Origin: a virus
Lineage: Duplodnaviria; Heunggongvirae; Uroviricota; Caudoviricetes
IMG/VR virus record: IMGVR_UViG_2526164632_000028
Strand: one strand, 5' to 3'
DNA length: 15,265 nt
Positions 1,419-13,234 of the stretch are shown here, in pieces. The notes under the pieces are model-generated. The model was not told the DNA's origin, made no database searches, and saw only the letters and a program-made list of their open reading frames with translations. Numbering within the stretch: position 1 is the first letter of the stretch; each line of letters begins with the position of its first letter. The position numbers and the translations under genes were made by a program.

Positions 1419-3890
1419 TTAAAAATCAGCCTGACTCGGGATCAGTTTTTGCCAGATAACTGAAACGTATTTTGCCTGGTAACGGGCGTCATCAAGTGCA
1501 TTATGGCGCTCACCTTCGAATGGAATAGCCGTTCTGGCATCGAAGTCTATGGCTTTCCCCAGCTCAACGATTGTGCGTACATCGCGATCGTTGTAGTAAC
1601 GCCACGGGCAGGGGATCCCCTGCCGTTCGTATGAACGGCGCAAAATCGTGTTGTCGAAGTTGGCTCCATTTCCCCAGACCTGAACAAAAAATTCACCGGA
1701 GTTTTCGTCGATAAATTCCCGCAATTGTAACAGTGCATCATCTAACGGGATTTCATCGGTCATAATGGCAGATTGCGCTTCGCGTGATTGCTTAAGCCAC
1801 CATTTAATGGTGTCCCGATCAATGACTCCGCCAGCAGTTTCCAGATCGATAGTCTTACTAAATTCCGGTCCCATATCTCCGGTTTGCGGATCGAAAAATA
1901 TTGCACCTATTGAGATAATCGGGGCATCGGGATTTTTTCCCATGGTTTCAAGGTCGATCATCAGATGAATCCCCGCTCTGCTGGTGGATGTGAGATTATG
2001 ATGACCGTTCGCCTTAATTAAGGGATCTGACGCCTCGCCAGTTTCACTATCGCTGGCATGATGCTGATTGCCGCCAGTGTTCTCCTTGTGCTGATGCGCA
2101 GTGCCTTCCATTTCCTCCGGATCATTTTCCTGAACTTCAGGCTGATTCTCTCCATCGAATATTTCCTGGTATGTTGCGTCACCCATCACCGCACCACAAT
2201 CAGGGCAGTTGCCGCCACCGCTCTGACCGCAGGCGGTGCAGATCTTTTCCGGTTCCTGTTGCACTACTGGTTCAGGTTGTTTCGTTTCTGGCTCGTTTTG
2301 TTGCGTATTTGGGCTGTTTTGTTCCGCTTTCTGGTCGTTCTGTTCCGTTTCTTGCTGGTTCTGGTTCACAGAATCGCGGGTCTGGATCCCCTTAACCCAT
2401 TTCGGATCATTCGGGTCGCTAATCCCTTCAACAAATTCACCACGTGATACTGCAAGCAGTTCATCGGCGTCAGGCTGGCTGATATTGGCTGCCTGCATAA
2501 TTTTGTTTACTTCGTCAGCGGTAACTTTTACTGACCCTGGTTGTGCGGTCGTGTCAGATGCACCAGTATTTTGTTGTGAACCTGAGTATGTACCGTTTTT
2601 GCGGGCGAAATATTCTTCTTTCGTGATTTCAGTAGCCCCAGCAGACAGCGCCTTATCCAGACCAGAAAGTTTGTTTGCGCGACCGTATTTTTCGCCATCC
2701 TTGTCGGTGAAGAGGAAGTAGAACGGCCCCTCACGCTCTACAGATGGTTCAGCTTCCGGCGCGGTTTCATTTTTTGGGATATCAGATACCTCAGTTTCCA
2801 CTGCATCAGTTTGTGTTTCTGATGACTGGAGAACATCAACAGTGCCCAGGTCTGTTTCTTCATTCTCAAACACGCCCTTTGTCGTCAGGTATTCGCAGAT
2901 ATATTTGTTCAGTGCTACGGGATCTTTGTGAATGTCGATCGAACGTTCACGGACAAGGCCAAAAATAGTCTGGCGGTCGTAGCGAAGGGCATCAGGCTGT
3001 TTGCGCATTGATGCCGAGATACGCTTCCAGTCTTCGCGGCCGTTGTCGATAACTTCATTTTTTGCCCAGCGATGGATGCTGCCGTCAATGTTTCCGGCAT
3101 CCACATCACCAGGCCAGAGAGCGTAGGCCAGTTCGTCATCCAGTGTTTTCCATGTCTGCTTGTATTCGCGATGAATGGCAGCAATGACCGGGCTGATTTT
3201 TCCTGTTGAATTTTCAGTGTACTGTTGATTGGCTCTGGCGCGGGCGAGATCAACAACAGACGTGTATTTTCCGGTTTCCTTGCGTTCGCCTTCGCGACGT
3301 TTTTTCCAGATGCGCATCTCTGCCTGAATTTCGGGCCATTTAGCACCAGGAATACATTTATGCTTAACCCACCCAATGGCGTGCAACTTAAGCTCCGGAT
3401 ACATGGCGTTAACTTCTGGCATTTTCATCAACGCTTCAACGATATGTCCGTCGAATGTTGCCATGTCTTCCTGCAACAATTCCTGTGCGCTAATAACCAT
3501 ATCAACGGTGATGTTTTCACATGTGTCGAACTTAACCATGACAGCGTTCTGTACTTCAGGGGCCAGCTTGTCAAAAGTGACGTTCATCGGATAGGATTCA
3601 GTCTCAACCGGGACAAAAGAAGCAGACTCCTCATCCCAGCGGTTTTCCTGCATATATTCAGCATCCCATGAATCGAGGGCAGGGCGGGGTATGCCAGGTT
3701 TATCCTCGCAGACAATAAATTTATAAGCGCAGTCCTGAGCTGCCGGATAATGTTCCAGGAATTGCCAGTGAAATTTTGCGCGGGCGCGACATTCATCACC
3801 GGCTTCAATGGCAGTGGCTACAGCGACTGCACCTTCTTCCTTTATTGCCTGTTCGTCCGGAATGGCGGCGCAAATAAAGACTTTACTCAT
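1419..3890 (-). CDS. large prophage exonuclease: N-terminal domain of unknown function, acidic Q/E/N-rich linker with zinc ribbon, C-terminal DnaQ-like DEDDh 3'-5' exonuclease domain
   Basis: 823-aa ORF. C-terminal motifs MIDLETMG (Exo I, D-x-E), WGNGANFD (Exo II) and HNALDDARY (Exo III, H-x4-D). Central CTACGQSGGGNCPDCG zinc-ribbon motif in a low-complexity acidic linker. Sits in the lambda exo / Rac recE position; the K-12 ydfE fragment downstream of ydfD may be a truncated homologue (inference). Confidence 0.85.
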   Translation of the reverse strand: MSKVFICAAIPDEQAIKEEGAVAVATAIEAGDECRARAKFHWQFLEHYPAAQDCAYKFIVCEDKPGIPRPALDSWDAEYMQENRWDEESASFVPVETESYPMNVTFDKLAPEVQNAVMVKFDTCENITVDMVISAQELLQEDMATFDGHIVEALMKMPEVNAMYPELKLHAIGWVKHKCIPGAKWPEIQAEMRIWKKRREGERKETGKYTSVVDLARARANQQYTENSTGKISPVIAAIHREYKQTWKTLDDELAYALWPGDVDAGNIDGSIHRWAKNEVIDNGREDWKRISASMRKQPDALRYDRQTIFGLVRERSIDIHKDPVALNKYICEYLTTKGVFENEETDLGTVDVLQSSETQTDAVETEVSDIPKNETAPEAEPSVEREGPFYFLFTDKDGEKYGRANKLSGLDKALSAGATEITKEEYFARKNGTYSGSQQNTGASDTTAQPGSVKVTADEVNKIMQAANISQPDADELLAVSRGEFVEGISDPNDPKWVKGIQTRDSVNQNQQETEQNDQKAEQNSPNTQQNEPETKQPEPVVQQEPEKICTACGQSGGGNCPDCGAVMGDATYQEIFDGENQPEVQENDPEEMEGTAHQHKENTGGNQHHASDSETGEASDPLIKANGHHNLTSTSRAGIHLMIDLETMGKNPDAPIISIGAIFFDPQTGDMGPEFSKTIDLETAGGVIDRDTIKWWLKQSREAQSAIMTDEIPLDDALLQLREFIDENSGEFFVQVWGNGANFDNTILRRSYERQGIPCPWRYYNDRDVRTIVELGKAIDFDARTAIPFEGERHNALDDARYQAKYVSVIWQKLIPSQADF

Positions 3891-4174: not shown

Positions 4175-4359
4175 TGCCAGCATCCTTTTTGTATCGGACG
4201 TAAACGGGCCAGCATTGAAAGAATGCATATTTTATTTAATAACTCCCGTTCGTGTTTTCTCTTGTTAATGGCATCTTCAGTAAATACAGGGTTACTGATA
4301 GTGACACCAATTTCAAAACAACCTTCAGACGTATTAACGTTTGGTAATAACGTTTCCAT
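4171..4359 (-). CDS. dicB: cell division inhibitor DicB
   Basis: 62-aa ORF METLLPNVNTSEGCFEIGVTISNPVFTEDAINKRKHERELLNKICILSMLARLRPIQKGCWQ, matching E. coli DicB as I remember it along nearly its whole length. SD GAGGA upstream of ATG at 4359. DicF-like sequence lies immediately upstream on the same strand. Confidence 0.85.
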   Translation of the reverse strand: METLLPNVNTSEGCFEIGVTISNPVFTEDAINKRKHERELLNKICILSMLARLRPIQKGCWQ

Positions 4360-4528
4360 TATCGCGTCCTCAACAATGAATTTTGTGATGCGGTGCCTGG
4401 TGCCTCCAGGTGACGTTAACCAGTTAACAATTAACGCCGGATACAGAGAATCCACCCATAACACTGTTTTTGGTTTTAACTGTTCCGCGTGCGCTCAGCC
4501 GCATTCACCACATCACAAAATTCACTTT

Positions 4529-4586
4529 AAAAAGGGCGGCAGAGCAGTCACGGAGTAAAACTGATACCGCCAAACGTCACCAGAAA
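4529..4586 (-). ncRNA. dicF: DicF small regulatory RNA (ftsZ-targeting sRNA processed from the dicB operon transcript)
   Basis: Minus-strand sequence TTTCTGGTGACGTTTGGCGGTATCAGTTTTACTCCGTGACTGCTCTGCCGCCCTTTTT matches my recollection of E. coli DicF, ending in a GC stem plus U-tract. Located just upstream of dicB as in Qin. Exact ends are uncertain by a few nt. Confidence 0.7.
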
Positions 4587-4920
4587 ATTGATAACAGAGG
4601 GCGTTGCAGCGGGGTTGTCACTTAAGCGTATGGTCAACCTGACAACCCGGTGTCCTCAACGGGGAAGGAATAACCCCGCCATACTTACCGCCGCGCCATT
4701 TCGCGGAGTGCCACAACCGGAAGCGCACGGTCGACGAAAATTTAACGACAGGCTATCTATGAACCAACAACTTCGCCGTGCGCTTTCGCGTTATGCCCTG
4801 ACTTTTCAGGGAGATATCCTTTCAGTAAACTGTCAGTGCCGGATGCTCACCCGTGTCCGGCGCACGCACTCCACCTCACCCGTGGAGAACTCCTTAATTA
4901 CTAACCCTCAGGAGGATGAA

Positions 4921-9089: not shown

Positions 9090-9860
9090 ATGGAAACCGT
9101 ATCTGACGCACTGAAAGCACTGAAAAAAGCCTCTTCACATGTGGTGGCAGCTCGCCTTGGAATCAGTCGTGAAGAGGCTGTCAACGAGCTGTGGGAACTC
9201 AAAAGAAATGGCGTCGTTGATAAAACTGGTCACACCTGGTTTCTGGCTGGCGAAGGTGAATCCCGGGTAACCGAAGAGCGGCCAGTAAAATCTGAAGCAC
9301 AGGATATGCTGACCGGGGAGGTCGAACAAAAAGTTACCGCAGACATGATGATTGAGTTTATCGGTCAGGATGGGGCTAAAACGTGTGAGGAACTGGCGGG
9401 TAAGTTCGGTGTCAGTACTCGCAAGGTTGCTTCCACGCTGGCGGTGGTAACCGCAACGGGGCGGCTGGCACGCGTTAATCAGAACGGTAAATTTCGTTAC
9501 TGCATGCCGGGCGATAATTTACCAGCAGAGCCGAAAGCCGCGCTGGTAACGGAAAGTGATGGTAAGGCCTTTCCTCAGCCAGCAGGTGCTGCGTTACCAG
9601 GCCGGGAAGCCGCAACACAGGAAGAAATTAAAACAGAAACTGTGGCGGACATTGTGCAGTCGTTGCCATCGTTTACCGAAACGCAAGCAGATGAGCTGAT
9701 TTTTCCGTCCCTGCGCAGGGCAAACCTGGCGCTGCGCAGGGCGAAAAGTGATGTTCAGAAGTGGGAGCGAGTCTGCGCCGCGCTGCGGGAGCTGAACAAG
9801 CACCGGGATATTGTTCGACAGATTACTGATTCTTCCCGCCGTGTTGTATCGGAAAAGTGA
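9090..9860 (+). CDS. hypothetical protein with two winged-helix-like repeats
   Basis: 256-aa ORF; ATG 9090 with SD GGAGG. Internal repeats AARLGISREEAVNELWELKRNGVVDKTGHTWFL and AGKFGVSTRKVASTLAVVTATGRLARVNQNGKFRYCM. No homology recognised. Confidence 0.65.
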   Translation: METVSDALKALKKASSHVVAARLGISREEAVNELWELKRNGVVDKTGHTWFLAGEGESRVTEERPVKSEAQDMLTGEVEQKVTADMMIEFIGQDGAKTCEELAGKFGVSTRKVASTLAVVTATGRLARVNQNGKFRYCMPGDNLPAEPKAALVTESDGKAFPQPAGAALPGREAATQEEIKTETVADIVQSLPSFTETQADELIFPSLRRANLALRRAKSDVQKWERVCAALRELNKHRDIVRQITDSSRRVVSEK

Positions 9861-9875
9861 TTGCCGGAGGCGCTT

Positions 9876-10298
9876 ATGGCAAAAGTATTTACACAAGAAG
9901 AGCGGGAAAAAATTAAAGGGCAGGTTGTTGAGCTAGTACGCCGGAGTGGGCGCGAGACGTTACGGCAACTGGAAGCCAAGACAGGTGCGACAAGATATCT
10001 GATGAGTGTTCTCGCCAGAGAGCTGGTTGCCAGTGGCGATGTATACAACTCTGGTTACGGGTTATTCCCGTCTGAACAGGCGCGTAAGGACTGGCAAAAC
10101 GCCCGCAAAAAACTCTCAAGGGCAAATCTGAAGAAACCATCTGTGGTTGATCCTGACCTTATCTGGCCATTACCAGACGGAGAAATACGCCGCTACGACA
10201 GGCGTCAAAACATAATCTGTAGCGAGTGCCGGAAGAGCGAAGCTATGCAGCGTGTACTGGCTTTCTATCAGGGTAATTTTCAGAAGGTGCTGTTGTGA
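9876..10298 (+). CDS. hypothetical protein with one winged-helix-like module related to the upstream gene
   Basis: ATG 9876 with SD GGAGG at 9866-9870 (tabulated ORF starts at TTG 9861). Motif VELVRRSGRETLRQLEAKTGATRYLMSVLARELVASGDV resembles the repeats in 9090-9860. C-terminal CSEC motif. Confidence 0.6.
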   Translation: MAKVFTQEEREKIKGQVVELVRRSGRETLRQLEAKTGATRYLMSVLARELVASGDVYNSGYGLFPSEQARKDWQNARKKLSRANLKKPSVVDPDLIWPLPDGEIRRYDRRQNIICSECRKSEAMQRVLAFYQGNFQKVLL

Positions 10299-10332
10299 GC
10301 CAAATTAACAATCGGAACTTCGTGAAGAGAAA

Positions 10333-10403
10333 GCATAATCCAAATCTGAATAATTAAGTTCAGCACTGTAAATAAAATTTAATCCTTAACTGGAGGTATA
10401 TCT
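10333..10403 (+). repeat. module-junction repeat, copy 1 (second copy at 11600-11668)
   Basis: AATCCAAATCTGAATAATTAAGTTCAGCACTGTAAATAAAATTTAATCCTTAACTGGAGGTATATCT versus AATCCAGAACTGAATAATTAAATTTAGCTCTGTTAAAAATTTAATCCTTAACCGGAGGGATTTCT, about 85% identical by eye. Copy 1 ends at the SD and ATG of ORF 10404. Confidence 0.55.
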
Positions 10404-10616
10404 ATGTCAAATACACAGAAAATTATTAACACTGAAAAATATAACGAGTGGGTGAAAAAATTCTCTGAGCAGATTTTTAAAATTACTGGCGACGAGAATG
10501 TGGCAAAAAATGAATTGGAACCGTGGACACCTGAAGGAAACGCACCAAATTATTGCTGGTGGGAGGTTGATCCGGTTGATGCTGCAAATGAAGCCATGAG
10601 TTACCACAACGATTAA
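10404..10616 (+). CDS. hypothetical small protein (70 aa), first gene of the cargo island
   Basis: ATG 10404 with SD GGAGG 7 nt upstream; MSNTQKIINTEKYNEWVKKFSEQIF...; AT-rich codon usage distinct from flanking modules. Confidence 0.55.
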   Translation: MSNTQKIINTEKYNEWVKKFSEQIFKITGDENVAKNELEPWTPEGNAPNYCWWEVDPVDAANEAMSYHND

Positions 10617-10621
10617 TGTCG

Positions 10622-10648
10622 GGAGGCCGCCCGAAAGGGCGGTAAGAA
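10622..10648 (+). promoter_or_regulatory. SD-plus-hairpin translation leader (GGAGG followed by a CCGCCC-GAAA-GGGCGG stem-loop) preceding ORF 10649
   Basis: GGAGG at 10622-10626; 6-bp GC stem with GAAA tetraloop at 10627-10642; ATG at 10649. No U-tract, so not a terminator. Near-identical 23-nt copy at 11686-11708. Confidence 0.5.
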
Positions 10649-10867
10649 ATGACTACATTATTCAGAAAAGAATATCCGCAAAAAAGTAGGGCGACAGAAT
10701 TTTTGTTTCTCATTCTGTTTATCGTATTGATGATACCGATATCCCCTCTAATTTTTGTCTGGGCAATCGGGAAAATAATTGAGCCAGTTACTGAATTGTA
10801 TAACGACGTGGTATGGGCGTCATTCAACACACTGCACAATAAAATTAATCCGTATAAGGAAAACTGA
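10649..10867 (+). CDS. hypothetical small membrane protein (72 aa, one predicted transmembrane helix)
   Basis: MTTLFRKEYPQKSRATEFLFLILFIVLMIPISPLIFVWAIGKII...; hydrophobic stretch of about 25 aa after a basic N-terminus; preceded by the SD-hairpin leader. Confidence 0.55.
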   Translation: MTTLFRKEYPQKSRATEFLFLILFIVLMIPISPLIFVWAIGKIIEPVTELYNDVVWASFNTLHNKINPYKEN

Positions 10868-10868
10868 T

Positions 10869-11132
10869 ATGGCAACTTTGACAAAAAAAGAACGGGCATG
10901 GTTGAACGAATTACAGGAAGTTCTTGATCGCTGTCCATCACCGAAAAAAATTGGCTTTTACACCATTGGCGATAAAAGCATTTACCTGTATGACCTACGC
11001 CGCATGGATGAAATCATGGAGGCTCTTGATAATCGTTCGTCGATGGATTGGTGTGTTGCTGTTCATGATATGAATGCAGGGTTTGATGAAAAGATTTTGT
11101 TCCCCTCATCAGTTGAAAGCACTGCGGGTTAA
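10869..11132 (+). CDS. hypothetical protein (87 aa)
   Basis: ATG 10869 one nt after the upstream stop, with SD AAGGAAAA; MATLTKKERAWLNELQEVLDRCPSPKKIGFYTIGDKSIYLYDLRRMDEIMEALD... Confidence 0.55.
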   Translation: MATLTKKERAWLNELQEVLDRCPSPKKIGFYTIGDKSIYLYDLRRMDEIMEALDNRSSMDWCVAVHDMNAGFDEKILFPSSVESTAG

Positions 11133-11142
11133 GGAGTAACAC

Positions 11143-11286
11143 ATGACCACTATTACCAAAGAACGTATTGAATTGTTCATTAAATTTTCAGGAGGCGGTA
11201 CTGTGAGTGAAATTAGCTATCAGGCTTCAATTACCGCTGGCATTCGCATCAAAGGAGAGGAGCATGGAAATAAAACCAGAGGATGA
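11143..11286 (+). CDS. hypothetical small protein (47 aa), overlapping the next gene
   Basis: ATG 11143 with strong SD AAGGAG 7 nt upstream; MTTITKERIELFIKFSGGGTVSEISYQASITAGIRIKGEEHGNKTRG. Overlaps ORF 11264 by 23 nt in a different frame. Confidence 0.4.
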   Translation: MTTITKERIELFIKFSGGGTVSEISYQASITAGIRIKGEEHGNKTRG

Positions 11287-11620
11287 GTTAAGCAATATCG
11301 TTTTATTTCCGGTAAAAGAGGATGACCCTCGTAATCAGGTTAATTTTCTTTATGAGCCATCGGAAAGACCATATTGTCATCACGCCTCTGTCCGGGTTGA
11401 CGAAAAAGAGCGTCAGGTCCGCTGTAAAATCTGCGGTGCAGTTGTGGAACCATTTGACTGGATGCTCTCTGTGGCGAAAAGAGAAACCAGACTGGCAGAT
11501 GATGTAAGGCTCTTGCGTCAGGAGGAGCGGGAAAGGCGAAAAAATATAGAAAAGCTAATTCAGATTGAGCGTAACGCGAAAGCGCGGATACGCAGGGCGA
11601 CAAAATCCAGAACTGAATAA
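11264..11620 (+). CDS. hypothetical zinc-finger-like protein with basic coiled-coil C-terminus (118 aa)
   Basis: ATG 11264 with SD AAGGAG (alternative GTG start at 11207). Motif YCHHASVRVDEKERQVRCKICG, then an Arg/Lys/Glu-rich tail LLRQEERERRKNIEKLIQIERNAKARIRRATKSRTE. Confidence 0.55.
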   Translation: MEIKPEDELSNIVLFPVKEDDPRNQVNFLYEPSERPYCHHASVRVDEKERQVRCKICGAVVEPFDWMLSVAKRETRLADDVRLLRQEERERRKNIEKLIQIERNAKARIRRATKSRTE

Positions 11621-11668
11621 TTAAATTTAGCTCTGTTAAAAATTTAATCCTTAACCGGAGGGATTTCT
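11600..11668 (+). repeat. module-junction repeat, copy 2
   Basis: See copy 1 at 10333-10403. Copy 2 begins within the last codons of ORF 11264-11620 and is followed by the second SD-hairpin leader. Confidence 0.55.
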
Positions 11669-11684
11669 GCACCCTCAGAACATC

Positions 11685-11713
11685 AGGAGGCCGCCCGAAA
11701 GGGCGGTAGTTAA
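11685..11713 (+). promoter_or_regulatory. SD-plus-hairpin translation leader, copy 2, preceding ORF 11714
   Basis: AGGAGG at 11685-11690; CCGCCC-GAAA-GGGCGG at 11691-11706; ATG at 11714. Confidence 0.5.
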
Positions 11714-11896
11714 ATGCGAAAGTTTAAAATAATTATTGAAACGGGAATAGCCGGTGGAGATTTCGAGGATGAATTCGAAGTGGATGATGATGCGACGCCT
11801 GATGAAATACATGACGAAGCAAAAGATATTTTCTTTAACTACTGCAATTACTCATATCACGAAATAAAAGACGAAGAGGAAGAACAAAATGGCTGA
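11714..11896 (+). CDS. hypothetical highly acidic small protein (60 aa)
   Basis: MRKFKIIIETGIAGGDFEDEFEVDDDATPDEIHDEAKDIFFNYCNYSYHEIKDEEEEQNG, Asp/Glu-rich; preceded by the SD-hairpin leader. Confidence 0.5.
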   Translation: MRKFKIIIETGIAGGDFEDEFEVDDDATPDEIHDEAKDIFFNYCNYSYHEIKDEEEEQNG

Positions 11897-12065
11897 TTTT
11901 GGTTCAACTAAATACAACGTCGGTTTTGAAGAATGGCATGAACTGTTAATGGACTATGCAGAGTTACGTGGTGGCAGTGCTGCTGATGCTGAAGCATGGC
12001 GTGATGATTATGAAGCAGGAAAAACTCCGGTCGAAGCATATTGTGATGAGTGGGGCGATGAATGA
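11889..12065 (+). CDS. hypothetical acidic small protein (58 aa)
   Basis: ATG 11889 lies 5 nt before the upstream stop (ATGGCTGA); MADFGSTKYNVGFEEWHELLMDYAELRGGSAADAEAWRDDYEAGKTPVEAYCDEWGDE. Confidence 0.5.
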   Translation: MADFGSTKYNVGFEEWHELLMDYAELRGGSAADAEAWRDDYEAGKTPVEAYCDEWGDE

Positions 12066-12377
12066 GCGAGGTTAATTATCAGGAAGGGCATGAAACGGCG
12101 GGGCAAGCAAAAACAGTGGCATGGCGATATCGCTACGTGAAAAAAAGGCGTTACGGACTTTCAGGGGAAGTAGTGGTCTGGTGACTGGAAATATGTACCG
12201 AAAAAAGAGGATTGTAACGACAGGCCGAACTATGAAATTCAGGCCTTATTCACTGCCCCGCCAGTCCCGGTTACATCAGAAGAACTGGTTAAAGCTGTGC
12301 ACTTTTATGAACAACTAAAATGCGAAAATCCACCAGCATCCGGAAACCTGATTACAGATTCCCAGATAAGGCAATGA
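12062..12377 (+). pseudogene. hypothetical gene apparently split by a +1 frameshift near 12174-12184
   Basis: ATG 12062 overlaps the upstream stop (ATGA); frame gives MSEVNYQEGHETAGQAKTVAWRYRYVKKRRYGLSGEVVVW then TGA at 12182-12184. The +1 frame is open from 12174 to 12377 with protein-like content (...DWKYVPKKEDCNDRPNYEIQALFTAPPVPVTSEELVKAVHFYEQLKCENPPASGNLITDSQIRQ) but no start codon. Confidence 0.35.
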
Positions 12378-12547
12378 GCTACCTGGCGCAGAACGGGCTG
12401 ATAAGTATGGGGAATGTTTTACGATGAATATTTAGACTAAAGAGTTTGTAACGCTATGTAAGTGATTTTTTCTGGTTTAGATATTTATATGTCCGGCTAA
12501 ATTGAGGTGTGTTTAAATGTTATTGCACATTGATTGTAGGGGGAATA

Positions 12548-12685: not shown

Positions 12686-12928
12686 GGGTGTTCATGGCGG
12701 TCATGTGCATTGAATACTGGCGGTAAATACAGCGAACGCCATTGGTTTAGTTGGATATTTACTGTGCCGGACAAAAACGGTTTGCGGGGAAATCTTAGTT
12801 AAGTAGAATGACTGCGGGTGCTTGAGGCTATCTGTCTCAGGCATGAACACCAAAAGGCAGATAGAGAAAAGCCCCAGTTAACATTACGCGTCCTGCAAGA
12901 CGCTTAACATTAATCTGAGGCCATATCT

Positions 12929-12988
12929 ATGCGACACATAGAGATTAGCCTCTTACGGACCGAAAGGTCAAGGAGAAGCAGGCTATGA
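12929..12988 (+). CDS. mok-like leader ORF coupled to hok (19 codons)
   Basis: ATG 12929 with SD GAGG 9 nt upstream; MRHIEISLLRTERSRRSRL; its TGA (12986-12988) overlaps the hok ATG (12985-12987). Confidence 0.4.
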   Translation: MRHIEISLLRTERSRRSRL

Positions 12989-13140
12989 AGCAGCAAAAGG
13001 CGATGTTAATCGCCCTGATCGTCATCTGTTTAACCGTCATAGTGACGGCACTGGTAACGAGGAAAGACCTCTGCGAGGTACGAATCCGAACCGGCCAGAC
13101 GGAGGTCGCTGTCTTCACAGCTTACGAACCTGAGGAGTAA
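12985..13140 (+). CDS. hokD: Hok-family type I toxin (HokD/RelF-like)
   Basis: 51-aa ORF MKQQKAMLIALIVICLTVIVTALVTRKDLCEVRIRTGQTEVAVFTAYEPEE, recognised as Hok/Gef family. Followed by a 9-bp-stem GAAA hairpin (13148-13169) and a terminator. In Qin, hokD lies next to rem and ydfU, as here. Confidence 0.85.
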   Translation: MKQQKAMLIALIVICLTVIVTALVTRKDLCEVRIRTGQTEVAVFTAYEPEE

Positions 13141-13210
13141 GAGACCAGGCGAGGGAGAAATCCCTCGCCACCTCTGATGAGTCAGGCATCCTCAACGCAC
13201 CCGCACTTAA

Positions 13211-13234
13211 CCCGCTTCGGCGGGTTTTGTTTTT
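13211..13234 (+). terminator. rho-independent terminator of the hok transcript
   Basis: CCCGC-ttcg-GCGGG stem-loop followed by TTTTGTTTTT. Confidence 0.65.

Follow-up and report, generated by a model that had tools for sequence, protein, structure and literature searches.

An intercistronic linker of ~95 nt in lambdoid prophages of Escherichia and Shigella: a probable site of cassette exchange with predicted translation signals

Introduction

A large share of the accessory genes of pathogenic E. coli resides in lambdoid prophages. It is an old argument whether their mosaic joints arise by homologous exchange at linkers or by illegitimate recombination with subsequent selection. The boundary sequences of lambdoid phages (Susskind & Botstein 1978; Botstein 1980; Clark et al. 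2001 for HK620), as far as they are cited in PMC3029335 and PMC2839356, are short conserved sequences at gene boundaries, with non-homologous modules on either side in different phages. According to these citing papers, they are thought to target homologous recombination, by which modules are swapped in register and expression is kept.

A second type of boundary element, the promoter-early stem-loop (PeSL) cassette, was described in the T4-type phages RB49 and phi1 (Arbiol et al. 2010, PMC2839356). PeSLs are conserved intergenic units of ~100 bp that are repeated between the ORFans of hyperplastic regions, where ORFs are deleted, inserted or replaced between the copies. Their parts are, in this order, an A/T-rich stretch with the upstream stop, a stem-loop of GC pairs and an SD with the start codon. 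Mini-circles of PeSLs were rare and near the limit of detection. In phage T4, split ribosome-binding sites have been shown experimentally, in which a hairpin cuts the distance between SD and AUG from 22 to 5 nt (gene 38) and from 27 to 11 nt (gene 25) (Nivinskas et al. 1999; Malys & Nivinskas 2009, both as reviewed in PMC3014915). Integron attC sites, finally, are conserved, partly palindromic sequences at the boundary of shuffled, promoter-less gene cassettes.

In this study we analysed the window, a stretch of 15,265 nt from the virus record IMGVR_UViG_2526164632_000028, in which a junction element had been noticed at two places. This element, here called the linker, resembles the lambdoid boundary sequences in its position at gene boundaries and in the non-homologous genes on its two sides, but it parts small accessory cassettes and not classical functional modules. 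With the PeSLs it shares the size, the order of the parts and the exchange of ORFs between copies. However, it is found in temperate lambdoid prophages, inside a long operon, and has no sigma-70 promoter consensus, whereas PeSLs have strong promoters (PMC2839356). As in T4 genes 38 and 25, where SD and AUG are 22-27 nt apart and the folding of a stable hairpin between them leaves 5-11 nt, the linker has a hairpin between SD and start codon. In T4 this concerns one gene, while the predicted SD-hairpin module of the linker is portable and precedes at least five unrelated downstream genes. The linker is also conserved and partly palindromic at the boundary of promoter-less cassettes like attC, but no integron integrase, no conserved R''/R' GTTRRRY core sites and no inverted repeat across the element were found here. 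An attC-like reading was rejected for its lack of terminal inverted repeats and conserved core sites, and the exchange at the linker looks like general homologous recombination.

The exact ~95-nt unit with two SDs and a GC hairpin was found neither in a paper of the literature searched nor in Rfam. Judged by what the citing papers say of the boundary sequences, the linker may be a new and very common member of this group, or may equal one of those of Clark et al. 2001.

Results and Discussion

The prophage and its accessory genes

The DNA of the window is an E. coli lambdoid prophage, and its positions 9800-12400 are 100% identical to several chromosomes; FDAARGOS_1059 and O111:H2 12A are examples of strains with the identical region. 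Gene calls were taken from the PGAP annotation of an identical copy (L001, which equals the window shifted by 201 nt). The gene order given there is integrase, excisionase, an 823-aa exonuclease, dicB, a repressor/cro pair, ydaT, replication genes, DUF1627 and DUF977. After DUF977 follows a run of small ORFs on the same strand, which goes on to hok/sok (Table 1). Pfam searches of the small ORFs of this accessory run added nothing functional. The ORF after the 58-aa gene (12062-12427) was called by PGAP as a frameshifted pseudogene with an internal stop, which is a further sign of decay in the accessory region.

Table 1. Features of the accessory region around the two linker copies (positions in the window)
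Feature	Position	Strand	Remarks
DUF977	9861-10298	+	PGAP
Mini-ORF, frameshifted, 20 codons	10295-10357	+	GTG overlaps the DUF977 TGA; ends at the third stop of the linker; within the 105-nt spacer after DUF977
Linker copy 1, 5' half	10346-10396	+	CTGAATAATTAA, A/T-rich stretch, core TTTAATCCTTAAC, SD1 GGAGG (10392-10396)
orf70, 70 aa	10404-10616	+	PGAP hypothetical protein; no Pfam match
Linker copy 1, 3' half	10622-10644	+	SD2 GGAGG (10622-10626); hairpin hp2: CCGCCC (10627-10632), GAAA, GGGCGG (10637-10642); exact repeat
Four-gene cassette between the two linker copies	10649-11620	+	DUF4014, 87-aa ORF, 47-aa ORF, gene X
DUF4014	10649-10867	+	PGAP/Pfam
87-aa ORF	10869-11132	+	PGAP
47-aa ORF	11143-11286	+	PGAP
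Relic of the DUF977 3' end/Ea22-like start junction	11183-11221	+	NFQEAVL* in another frame, inside the 47-aa ORF
Gene X, 118 aa, zinc-ribbon-like	11264-11620	+	PGAP/Pfam
Linker copy 2, intact short form	11613-11707	+	A/T-rich part; core (11643-11661); SD1 (11657-11661); SD2 AGGAGG (11685-11690); hp2 (11691-11706)
DUF7167	11714-11896	+	PGAP

Two copies of one longer unit

The original prediction had proposed a junction element of about 70 nt with copies at 10333-10403 and 11600-11668. Both copies are present, 1.27 kb apart on the same strand, and their global alignment has 58 identical positions out of 71 (81.7%) with one 2-nt indel. Within the strict element from CTGAATAATTAA to GGAGG (10346-10396 and 11613-11661), 44 of 51 positions agree (86.3%), in line with the ~85% predicted for the core. 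The local alignment of the two copies scores 45, compared with a maximum of 18 in 100 shuffles, and a repeat search of the window returned blocks of 81% (42 nt) and 90% (30 nt). Of the 22-mer AAATTTAATCCTTAACYGGAGG the window contains two exact copies and no more; none of 200 shuffles contained any match.

While the repeat itself is real, its length had been underestimated. A second repeat, GGAGGCCGCCCGAAAGGGCGGTA, which was absent from the original prediction, is found at 10622-10644 and 11686-11708 and nowhere else in the window, and shuffles gave no match. It consists of GGAGG and the hairpin CCGCCC-GAAA-GGGCGG (hp2). The gap between the first and the second repeat is 24 nt in copy 2 and holds orf70 in copy 1. 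Since the second repeat is found at both sites, the two copies represent one longer unit of ~95 nt with a second SD and a GC hairpin, which in copy 1 is split by the inserted ORF. The orf70 cassette replaces the 24 nt between SD1 and SD2 of the short form.

CTGAATAATTAA holds stops in all three frames, and gene X ends inside copy 2 with ACT GAA TAA (stop at 11618-11620). On the 3' side, the ATG of DUF4014 follows 6 nt past the hp2 stem of copy 1, and that of DUF7167 follows 7 nt past the hp2 stem of copy 2. From 133 IMG/VR instances we derived the consensus CTGAATAATTAA-ATTTAGCACTGT(AAAT/T)AAAA-TTTAATCCTTAACCGGAGG-GATTTCTGCACCCTCAGAACATCA-GGAGG-CCGCCCGAAAGGGCGG-T. The linker begins at CTGAATAATTAA, which either forms the final two codons and the stop codon of the gene ahead of it or stands behind a gene stump, and it ends directly after the hairpin. 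In the instances examined, this end lies 6-11 nt ahead of the next start codon, and the flanking ORFs are on the strand of the linker.

Among the ~130 IMG/VR instances that were typed for the linker centre, ~100 have a 46-nt short form and 27 a 247-nt form with orf70. The short form is variable (53 sequence variants among 102 instances). A scan anchored on the hairpin found it nearly always within the linker or behind orf70, and revealed a second variant of the 5' half, ACTGAAGATTTAAATCAG...TTAAATCCTTAACCGGAGG. The invariance of the 19-nt core in the first IMG/VR sample was imposed by the search pattern; the core is invariant too in 29 hairpin-anchored instances, which have the gene X-DUF7167 context.

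A gene remnant ahead of copy 1

The similarity between the two copies was said to extend upstream into the end of gene X, and this is correct: the extension is real and in frame (GCA TAA TCC AAA TCT GAA TAA ahead of copy 1, ACA AAA TCC AGA ACT GAA TAA in gene X). Copy 1 does carry the remnant of a gene end that had been suspected there, a frameshifted mini-ORF whose tail is the in-frame homologue of the gene X end. The intact mini-ORF, MSEINYQALREEEKA*, is present in other prophages, among them L065, and according to the alignment with L065 the window has a net deletion of 4 nt. Upstream genes of the Ea22-like type at other loci start with VSEIDYQALRE. As the long Ea22-like genes begin in this way, the mini-ORF is regarded as the stump of an Ea22-like gene.

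A separate direct repeat links 10275-10313 with 11183-11221 (77% over 39 nt). The latter is what is left of a junction at which the 3' end of DUF977 met the GTG start of an Ea22-like gene. Because this relic is buried inside the 47-aa ORF, the latter may be an artefact of rearrangement and not a real gene. On the opposite strand, an antisense ORF of 110 codons (11340-11672, -) has its GTG start inside linker copy 2 and runs through gene X without a stop. A usable SD is missing, and the ORF is probably spurious.

Occurrence of the linker

A query of 98 nt (11611-11708) was searched against complete E. coli genomes. The linker was found in 2,679 of 5,426 genomes, about half, at 4,844 places and with up to 8 copies per genome. 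It had been proposed to search phage genomes for the element, and 18-21 phage records indeed carry it, including Stx2a phages, ArgO145, Rac-type phages and mEp460. In GTDB genomes, taken as one per species, exact matches to the core were limited to E. coli and S. flexneri plus two MAG contigs. These contigs (L126 and L127) are labelled Collinsella sp. and 'delta proteobacterium', two unrelated taxa, and most likely represent misbinned contigs of E. coli prophages. The Actinobacillus phage vB_Apl-pPE4 (PP818812.1) has a linker of 94% identity at 11316-11413, under the annotation 'Ead/Ea22-like protein'. This is odd for an element that is otherwise confined to Escherichia/Shigella, and host mis-assignment, contamination or a recent transfer are possible reasons.

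In the O157:H7 strain Z1830 (NZ_CP062713.1; L183 3999-4098) the linker is preceded by the pseudogene of a SAM-dependent methyltransferase and followed by a 65-aa ORF and a truncated 3'-5' exonuclease. This is a different prophage operon, and hence the linker is not tied to the region after the replication genes. The Qin prophage of E. coli K-12 has no linker copy, in a check of K-12 that covered Qin only; K-12 transcriptome maps are therefore unusable for the linker. A MITE- or REP-type mobile repeat was considered and rejected, as no inverted repeat spans the unit, the 5' end is in frame with the upstream genes and, in the instances examined, the unit is co-oriented with the flanking genes.

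Signs of cassette exchange inside the linker

Clustering of 150 nt on each side of the linker sorted the 133 IMG/VR instances into 8 classes by their upstream and 13 classes by their downstream flank. More than 30 pairings of these classes occur, and the linkers between them either hold orf70 or lack it. The original prediction had proposed to check whether different cassettes follow the element, and different cassettes are indeed found on both sides. Homology stops sharply, exactly at both linker ends. Representative flank proteins are mostly unrelated, and gene X, Ea22-like genes, DUF7167, DUF4014, the MTELTK family, MEITKE, MQEIKE and a QueH-like module show no kinship to one another. Distant kinship was seen between the classes U2 and U3 (31% amino-acid identity) and also among D2, D11 and D12.

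The sequence variation within the linker follows these flanks. In 97 short-form instances, columns 19-28 are associated with the upstream class (Cramer's V of 0.87-1.0, compared with 0.2-0.5 for the downstream class), while columns 69-72 and 98 are associated with the downstream class (0.77-1.0, and ~0.2 for the upstream class). The linkage switches between columns 28 and 69, in the conserved centre, whose 19-nt core is invariant by construction in this sample. Since the 5' SNPs track the upstream gene and the 3' SNPs the downstream gene, crossovers are expected to fall inside the linker. Chimeric linker haplotypes were also seen among the IMG/VR instances.

The four-gene cassette of the window is missing or arranged in other orders in other prophages. 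One prophage (L012) has a DUF977-like gene, a stump, one linker and DUF7167, and equals the window minus everything between the two copies. In a second (L017), DUF977 is joined directly to a homologue of window positions 11183-11667, followed by the linker 5' half, orf70, the 3' half and a different gene. A third (L021) has gene X, a short linker and DUF4014. This indirect evidence, at the level of populations, argues that exchanges occur within the linker, and the SNP pattern together with the flank combinations supports the idea that the element is a recombination linker at mosaic module boundaries. Within one flank context, the diversity of the linker (pi) is 0.018-0.043, and that of neighbouring third codon positions is 0.035 and 0.095. 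As the former is only slightly below the latter, purifying selection on the linker is weak or unproven.

The linker as a putative ribosome-binding site

The geometry of the 3' half is constant. A perfect SD (AGGAGG or GGAGA) lies directly 5' of hp2, and of 67 unique junctions 61 have the AUG 6-11 nt past hp2. The spacer between hp2 and AUG contains a separate SD in two classes only, those of 11 nt (TGGAGATAATA) and of 36 nt. The classes with 6, 7 and 9 nt, which account for 55 of the 67 junctions and at least four unrelated genes, have none; here the SD is more than 15 nt from the AUG, the 16-nt hairpin lies wholly between the two, and there is no other SD at normal spacing. In 75 junctions, hp2 (delta-G of about -14 kcal/mol) forms with a median probability of 0.995, and SD2 is unpaired at 58% on average. 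The linear distance of 22-25 nt between SD2 and AUG would be non-functional, but in the folding models it would shrink to 6-9 nt once hp2 is formed.

By analogy with the T4 genes, we infer that the linker may act as the translation start region of whichever cassette follows. Such a region would be needed, because coupling by termination and reinitiation does not reach across the ~100 nt from the upstream stop. Where orf70 is present, SD1 is a normal SD placed 7 nt before the ATG, whereas in the short form it has no start codon behind it and is without a clear role. A point against a split site is that genes with a separate SD have hp2 in front of them too. We also considered CTGAATAATTAA as a universal terminator of translation, by its block of three-frame stops, and rejected this. 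All long upstream genes share one stop (xCT GAA TAA). The shared stop frame is itself not significant, because two of the three upstream families are distant homologues.

A model for the linker

Our preferred reading, to which we assign a probability of roughly 0.7, is that the two copies are members of a family of intercistronic linkers, ~95 nt long, in the lambdoid prophages of Escherichia/Shigella, which serve as a homology patch for cassette swapping and as an expression signal. Homologous recombination at this patch, between co-resident or co-infecting lambdoid phages, would swap, delete or insert accessory cassettes. The window would be one outcome of this process, with two linkers bracketing the four-gene cassette and one of them holding orf70. 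The linker would persist as the expression signal of the cassette behind it, where it would end upstream translation and offer a strong SD. SD1 would be used directly by orf70, while SD2, parted from the next AUG by the very stable hp2, would be brought close to it by folding, as a split ribosome-binding site.

RecA or Rad52-like phage recombinases, tolerant of short homology with ~10% divergence, would be the agents. Relaxed recombination by Rad52-like phage recombinases has been described (PMC3945230), and exchange at patches of ~100 bp with ~10% divergence is plausible for RecA and especially for these enzymes. The 823-aa 'exonuclease' of the window (1419-3890, -) has the position of recE in Rac, and its C-terminal part is an Rv2179c-like DEDDh 3'-5' exoribonuclease domain (E = 5e-67). 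We found no RecE- or RecT-type domain in this protein and no Red/RecET pair in the window, and hence the recombinase would have to be supplied by the host or by co-resident phages.

The linker is very common, has clean ends and many flank combinations, and the crossovers appear to fall inside it. This makes the linker model of mosaic joints directly testable in this region. The finding of the linker alone overturns nothing; its most interesting aspect is the putative split ribosome-binding site, which would be portable. If SD, hairpin and AUG work as in T4 genes 38 and 25, several unrelated genes would have such a site in common. If this reading is true, the linker could help to annotate where small prophage ORFs start and might serve as a genetic part.

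A stronger form of this model is conceivable, although we hold it only tentatively and consider it rather unlikely. Here the linker would be a dedicated, portable 'cassette socket', for accessory genes. The three-frame stop block would terminate any upstream reading frame, the split SD/hairpin site would express any cassette that arrives behind it, and the crossovers would prefer the same ~95 nt. Expression and mobility would thus be coupled, and the unit would be actively maintained in about half of the complete E. coli genomes. In function such a socket would correspond to the PeSLs of T4-type phages or to integron attC sites, but it would be built from translation and not from transcription signals.

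RNA structure and the possibility of a cis-acting RNA

In a rival and rather unlikely reading, the linker would act in cis as an RNA element within the polycistronic early transcript and not as a plain ribosome-binding site, and the recombination pattern would be a by-product of its conservation. It could be a switch that sequesters an SD, the anti-SD-like AUCCUU pairing with SD1 or SD2 in alternative hairpins, or an mRNA processing or stabilising site, in which hp2 would be the protective 5' or 3' hairpin after cleavage. The folding of the region is partly in favour of such an element. The copy 2 region folds better than its shuffles (z = -3.3), mutually exclusive hairpins involve both SDs, and UCCUUA mimics the 3' end of 16S rRNA, as seen in the sequence. 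Moreover, hp2 is extremely stable. Its retention ahead of genes with an SD of their own also fits an RNA element.

In the models, however, only hp2 is robust among the RNA structures of the linker. All its stem positions are paired in the ensemble of both copies, and the fold of the 3' half of copy 1 has a z-score of -3.46. With z = -0.07, the 5' half of copy 1 is on a level with its shuffles. It had been suggested that the GGAGGG of copy 2 can pair with the downstream CCCTC. The complementarity exists (GAGGG at 11658-11662 with CCCTC at 11672-11676) and is part of the MFE structure in a 126-nt context, but in a 171-nt context the pairing falls to ~6%, and a competing helix of AAUCCUU (11646-11652) with AGGGAUU (11659-11665) wins. 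A UCCU/AGGA helix likewise appears in one MFE structure, and in longer context both it and the GAGGG/CCCTC hairpin reach ~5-6%. RNAalifold and explicit pair counting over 52 variants gave no covariation for any linker helix: 97.2% of the cells are paired, which equals the shuffled mean, and there is one compensatory cell, a result that neither proves nor refutes the structure. With covariation giving no support, hp2 rests on thermodynamics and on an excess of C-to-T changes in its stem, where 20 variant sequences have G.U-preserving C-to-T changes in the 5' arm and 3 have G-to-A changes in the 3' arm. This excess is suggestive, although the variants are not independent events. The loop of hp2 is variable (GAAA, GGCA, TAAA, AAAA).

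Two further points speak against an RNA element. A covariance-model search of Rfam gave no hit in 10300-11720 at E up to 1, and the 7-bp stem is too short for RNase III. Nor does the stem-loop look like an intrinsic terminator, since it lacks a U-run; the terminator scan at hp2 found nothing, the tail being TAAGAAATG or TAGTTAAATG.

Promoter, antitermination site or local duplication

A promoter had been named as an alternative in the original prediction. The A/T-rich 5' half would then be a moron-like or PeSL-like promoter that drives each cassette independently of the early promoter. This fits the A/T-rich stretch, the TAAAAT in copy 1 and many relatives, the position at the head of gene cassettes and the strong promoters of the analogous PeSLs in T4-type phages (PMC2839356). 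However, a scan for the sigma-70 consensus found no site in 10333-10403 or 11600-11713, and no acceptable -35 lies at 16-18 nt. Furthermore, the candidate -10 differs between the two copies through the 2-nt indel, and it is not kept in the ACTGAAGATTTAAATCAG... variant. We consequently regard a promoter as improbable.

Two other readings are very improbable. In the first, the linker would serve antitermination in the manner of a nut site, with TCCTTAAC in the part of boxA and a GNRA hairpin in that of boxB. TCCTTAAC agrees at 7 of 8 positions with the boxA core, TCTTTAAC, and hp2 is a GC stem with a GAAA loop, like lambda boxB. Yet boxA-like matches occur in the window at chance level (18 observed, 14.9 expected), none of them better than 3 mismatches, the spacing is ~40 nt in contrast to ~8 nt in nut sites, and the hp2 loop varies; moreover, no N-like gene is annotated and there are several linker copies per operon. 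In the second, the repeat would have arisen by duplication on the spot or by common descent inside this one prophage and would have no role beyond it. This would suit two copies 1.27 kb apart on one strand in a region which the repeat of 10275-10313 at 11183-11221 shows to be rearranged, but it is contradicted by the unit's presence in about half of the complete E. coli genomes, beside many unrelated genes and in other operon contexts.

Small RNAs and toxin-antitoxin locus of the window

The prophage sRNAs Pas, AgvB and AsxR were rejected as candidates for the linker, as the Pas genes adjoin the late lysis (holin/lysozyme) operon and not the linker region and there are no Rfam hits. The Rfam hits of the window are sok and DicF, and below threshold STnc100 and isrK. 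The DicF sRNA (76.7 bits) lies in 4327-4585 (-), directly adjoining the STnc100-like match (38.7 bits, gathering score 47). The isrK-like match at 13149-13230 (+) is weak (27.8 bits). The hok/sok locus, a type I toxin-antitoxin system, is located at 12816-13140, with a score of 106.7 bits for the sok RNA (gathering score 59) and the hokD ORF at 12985-13140.
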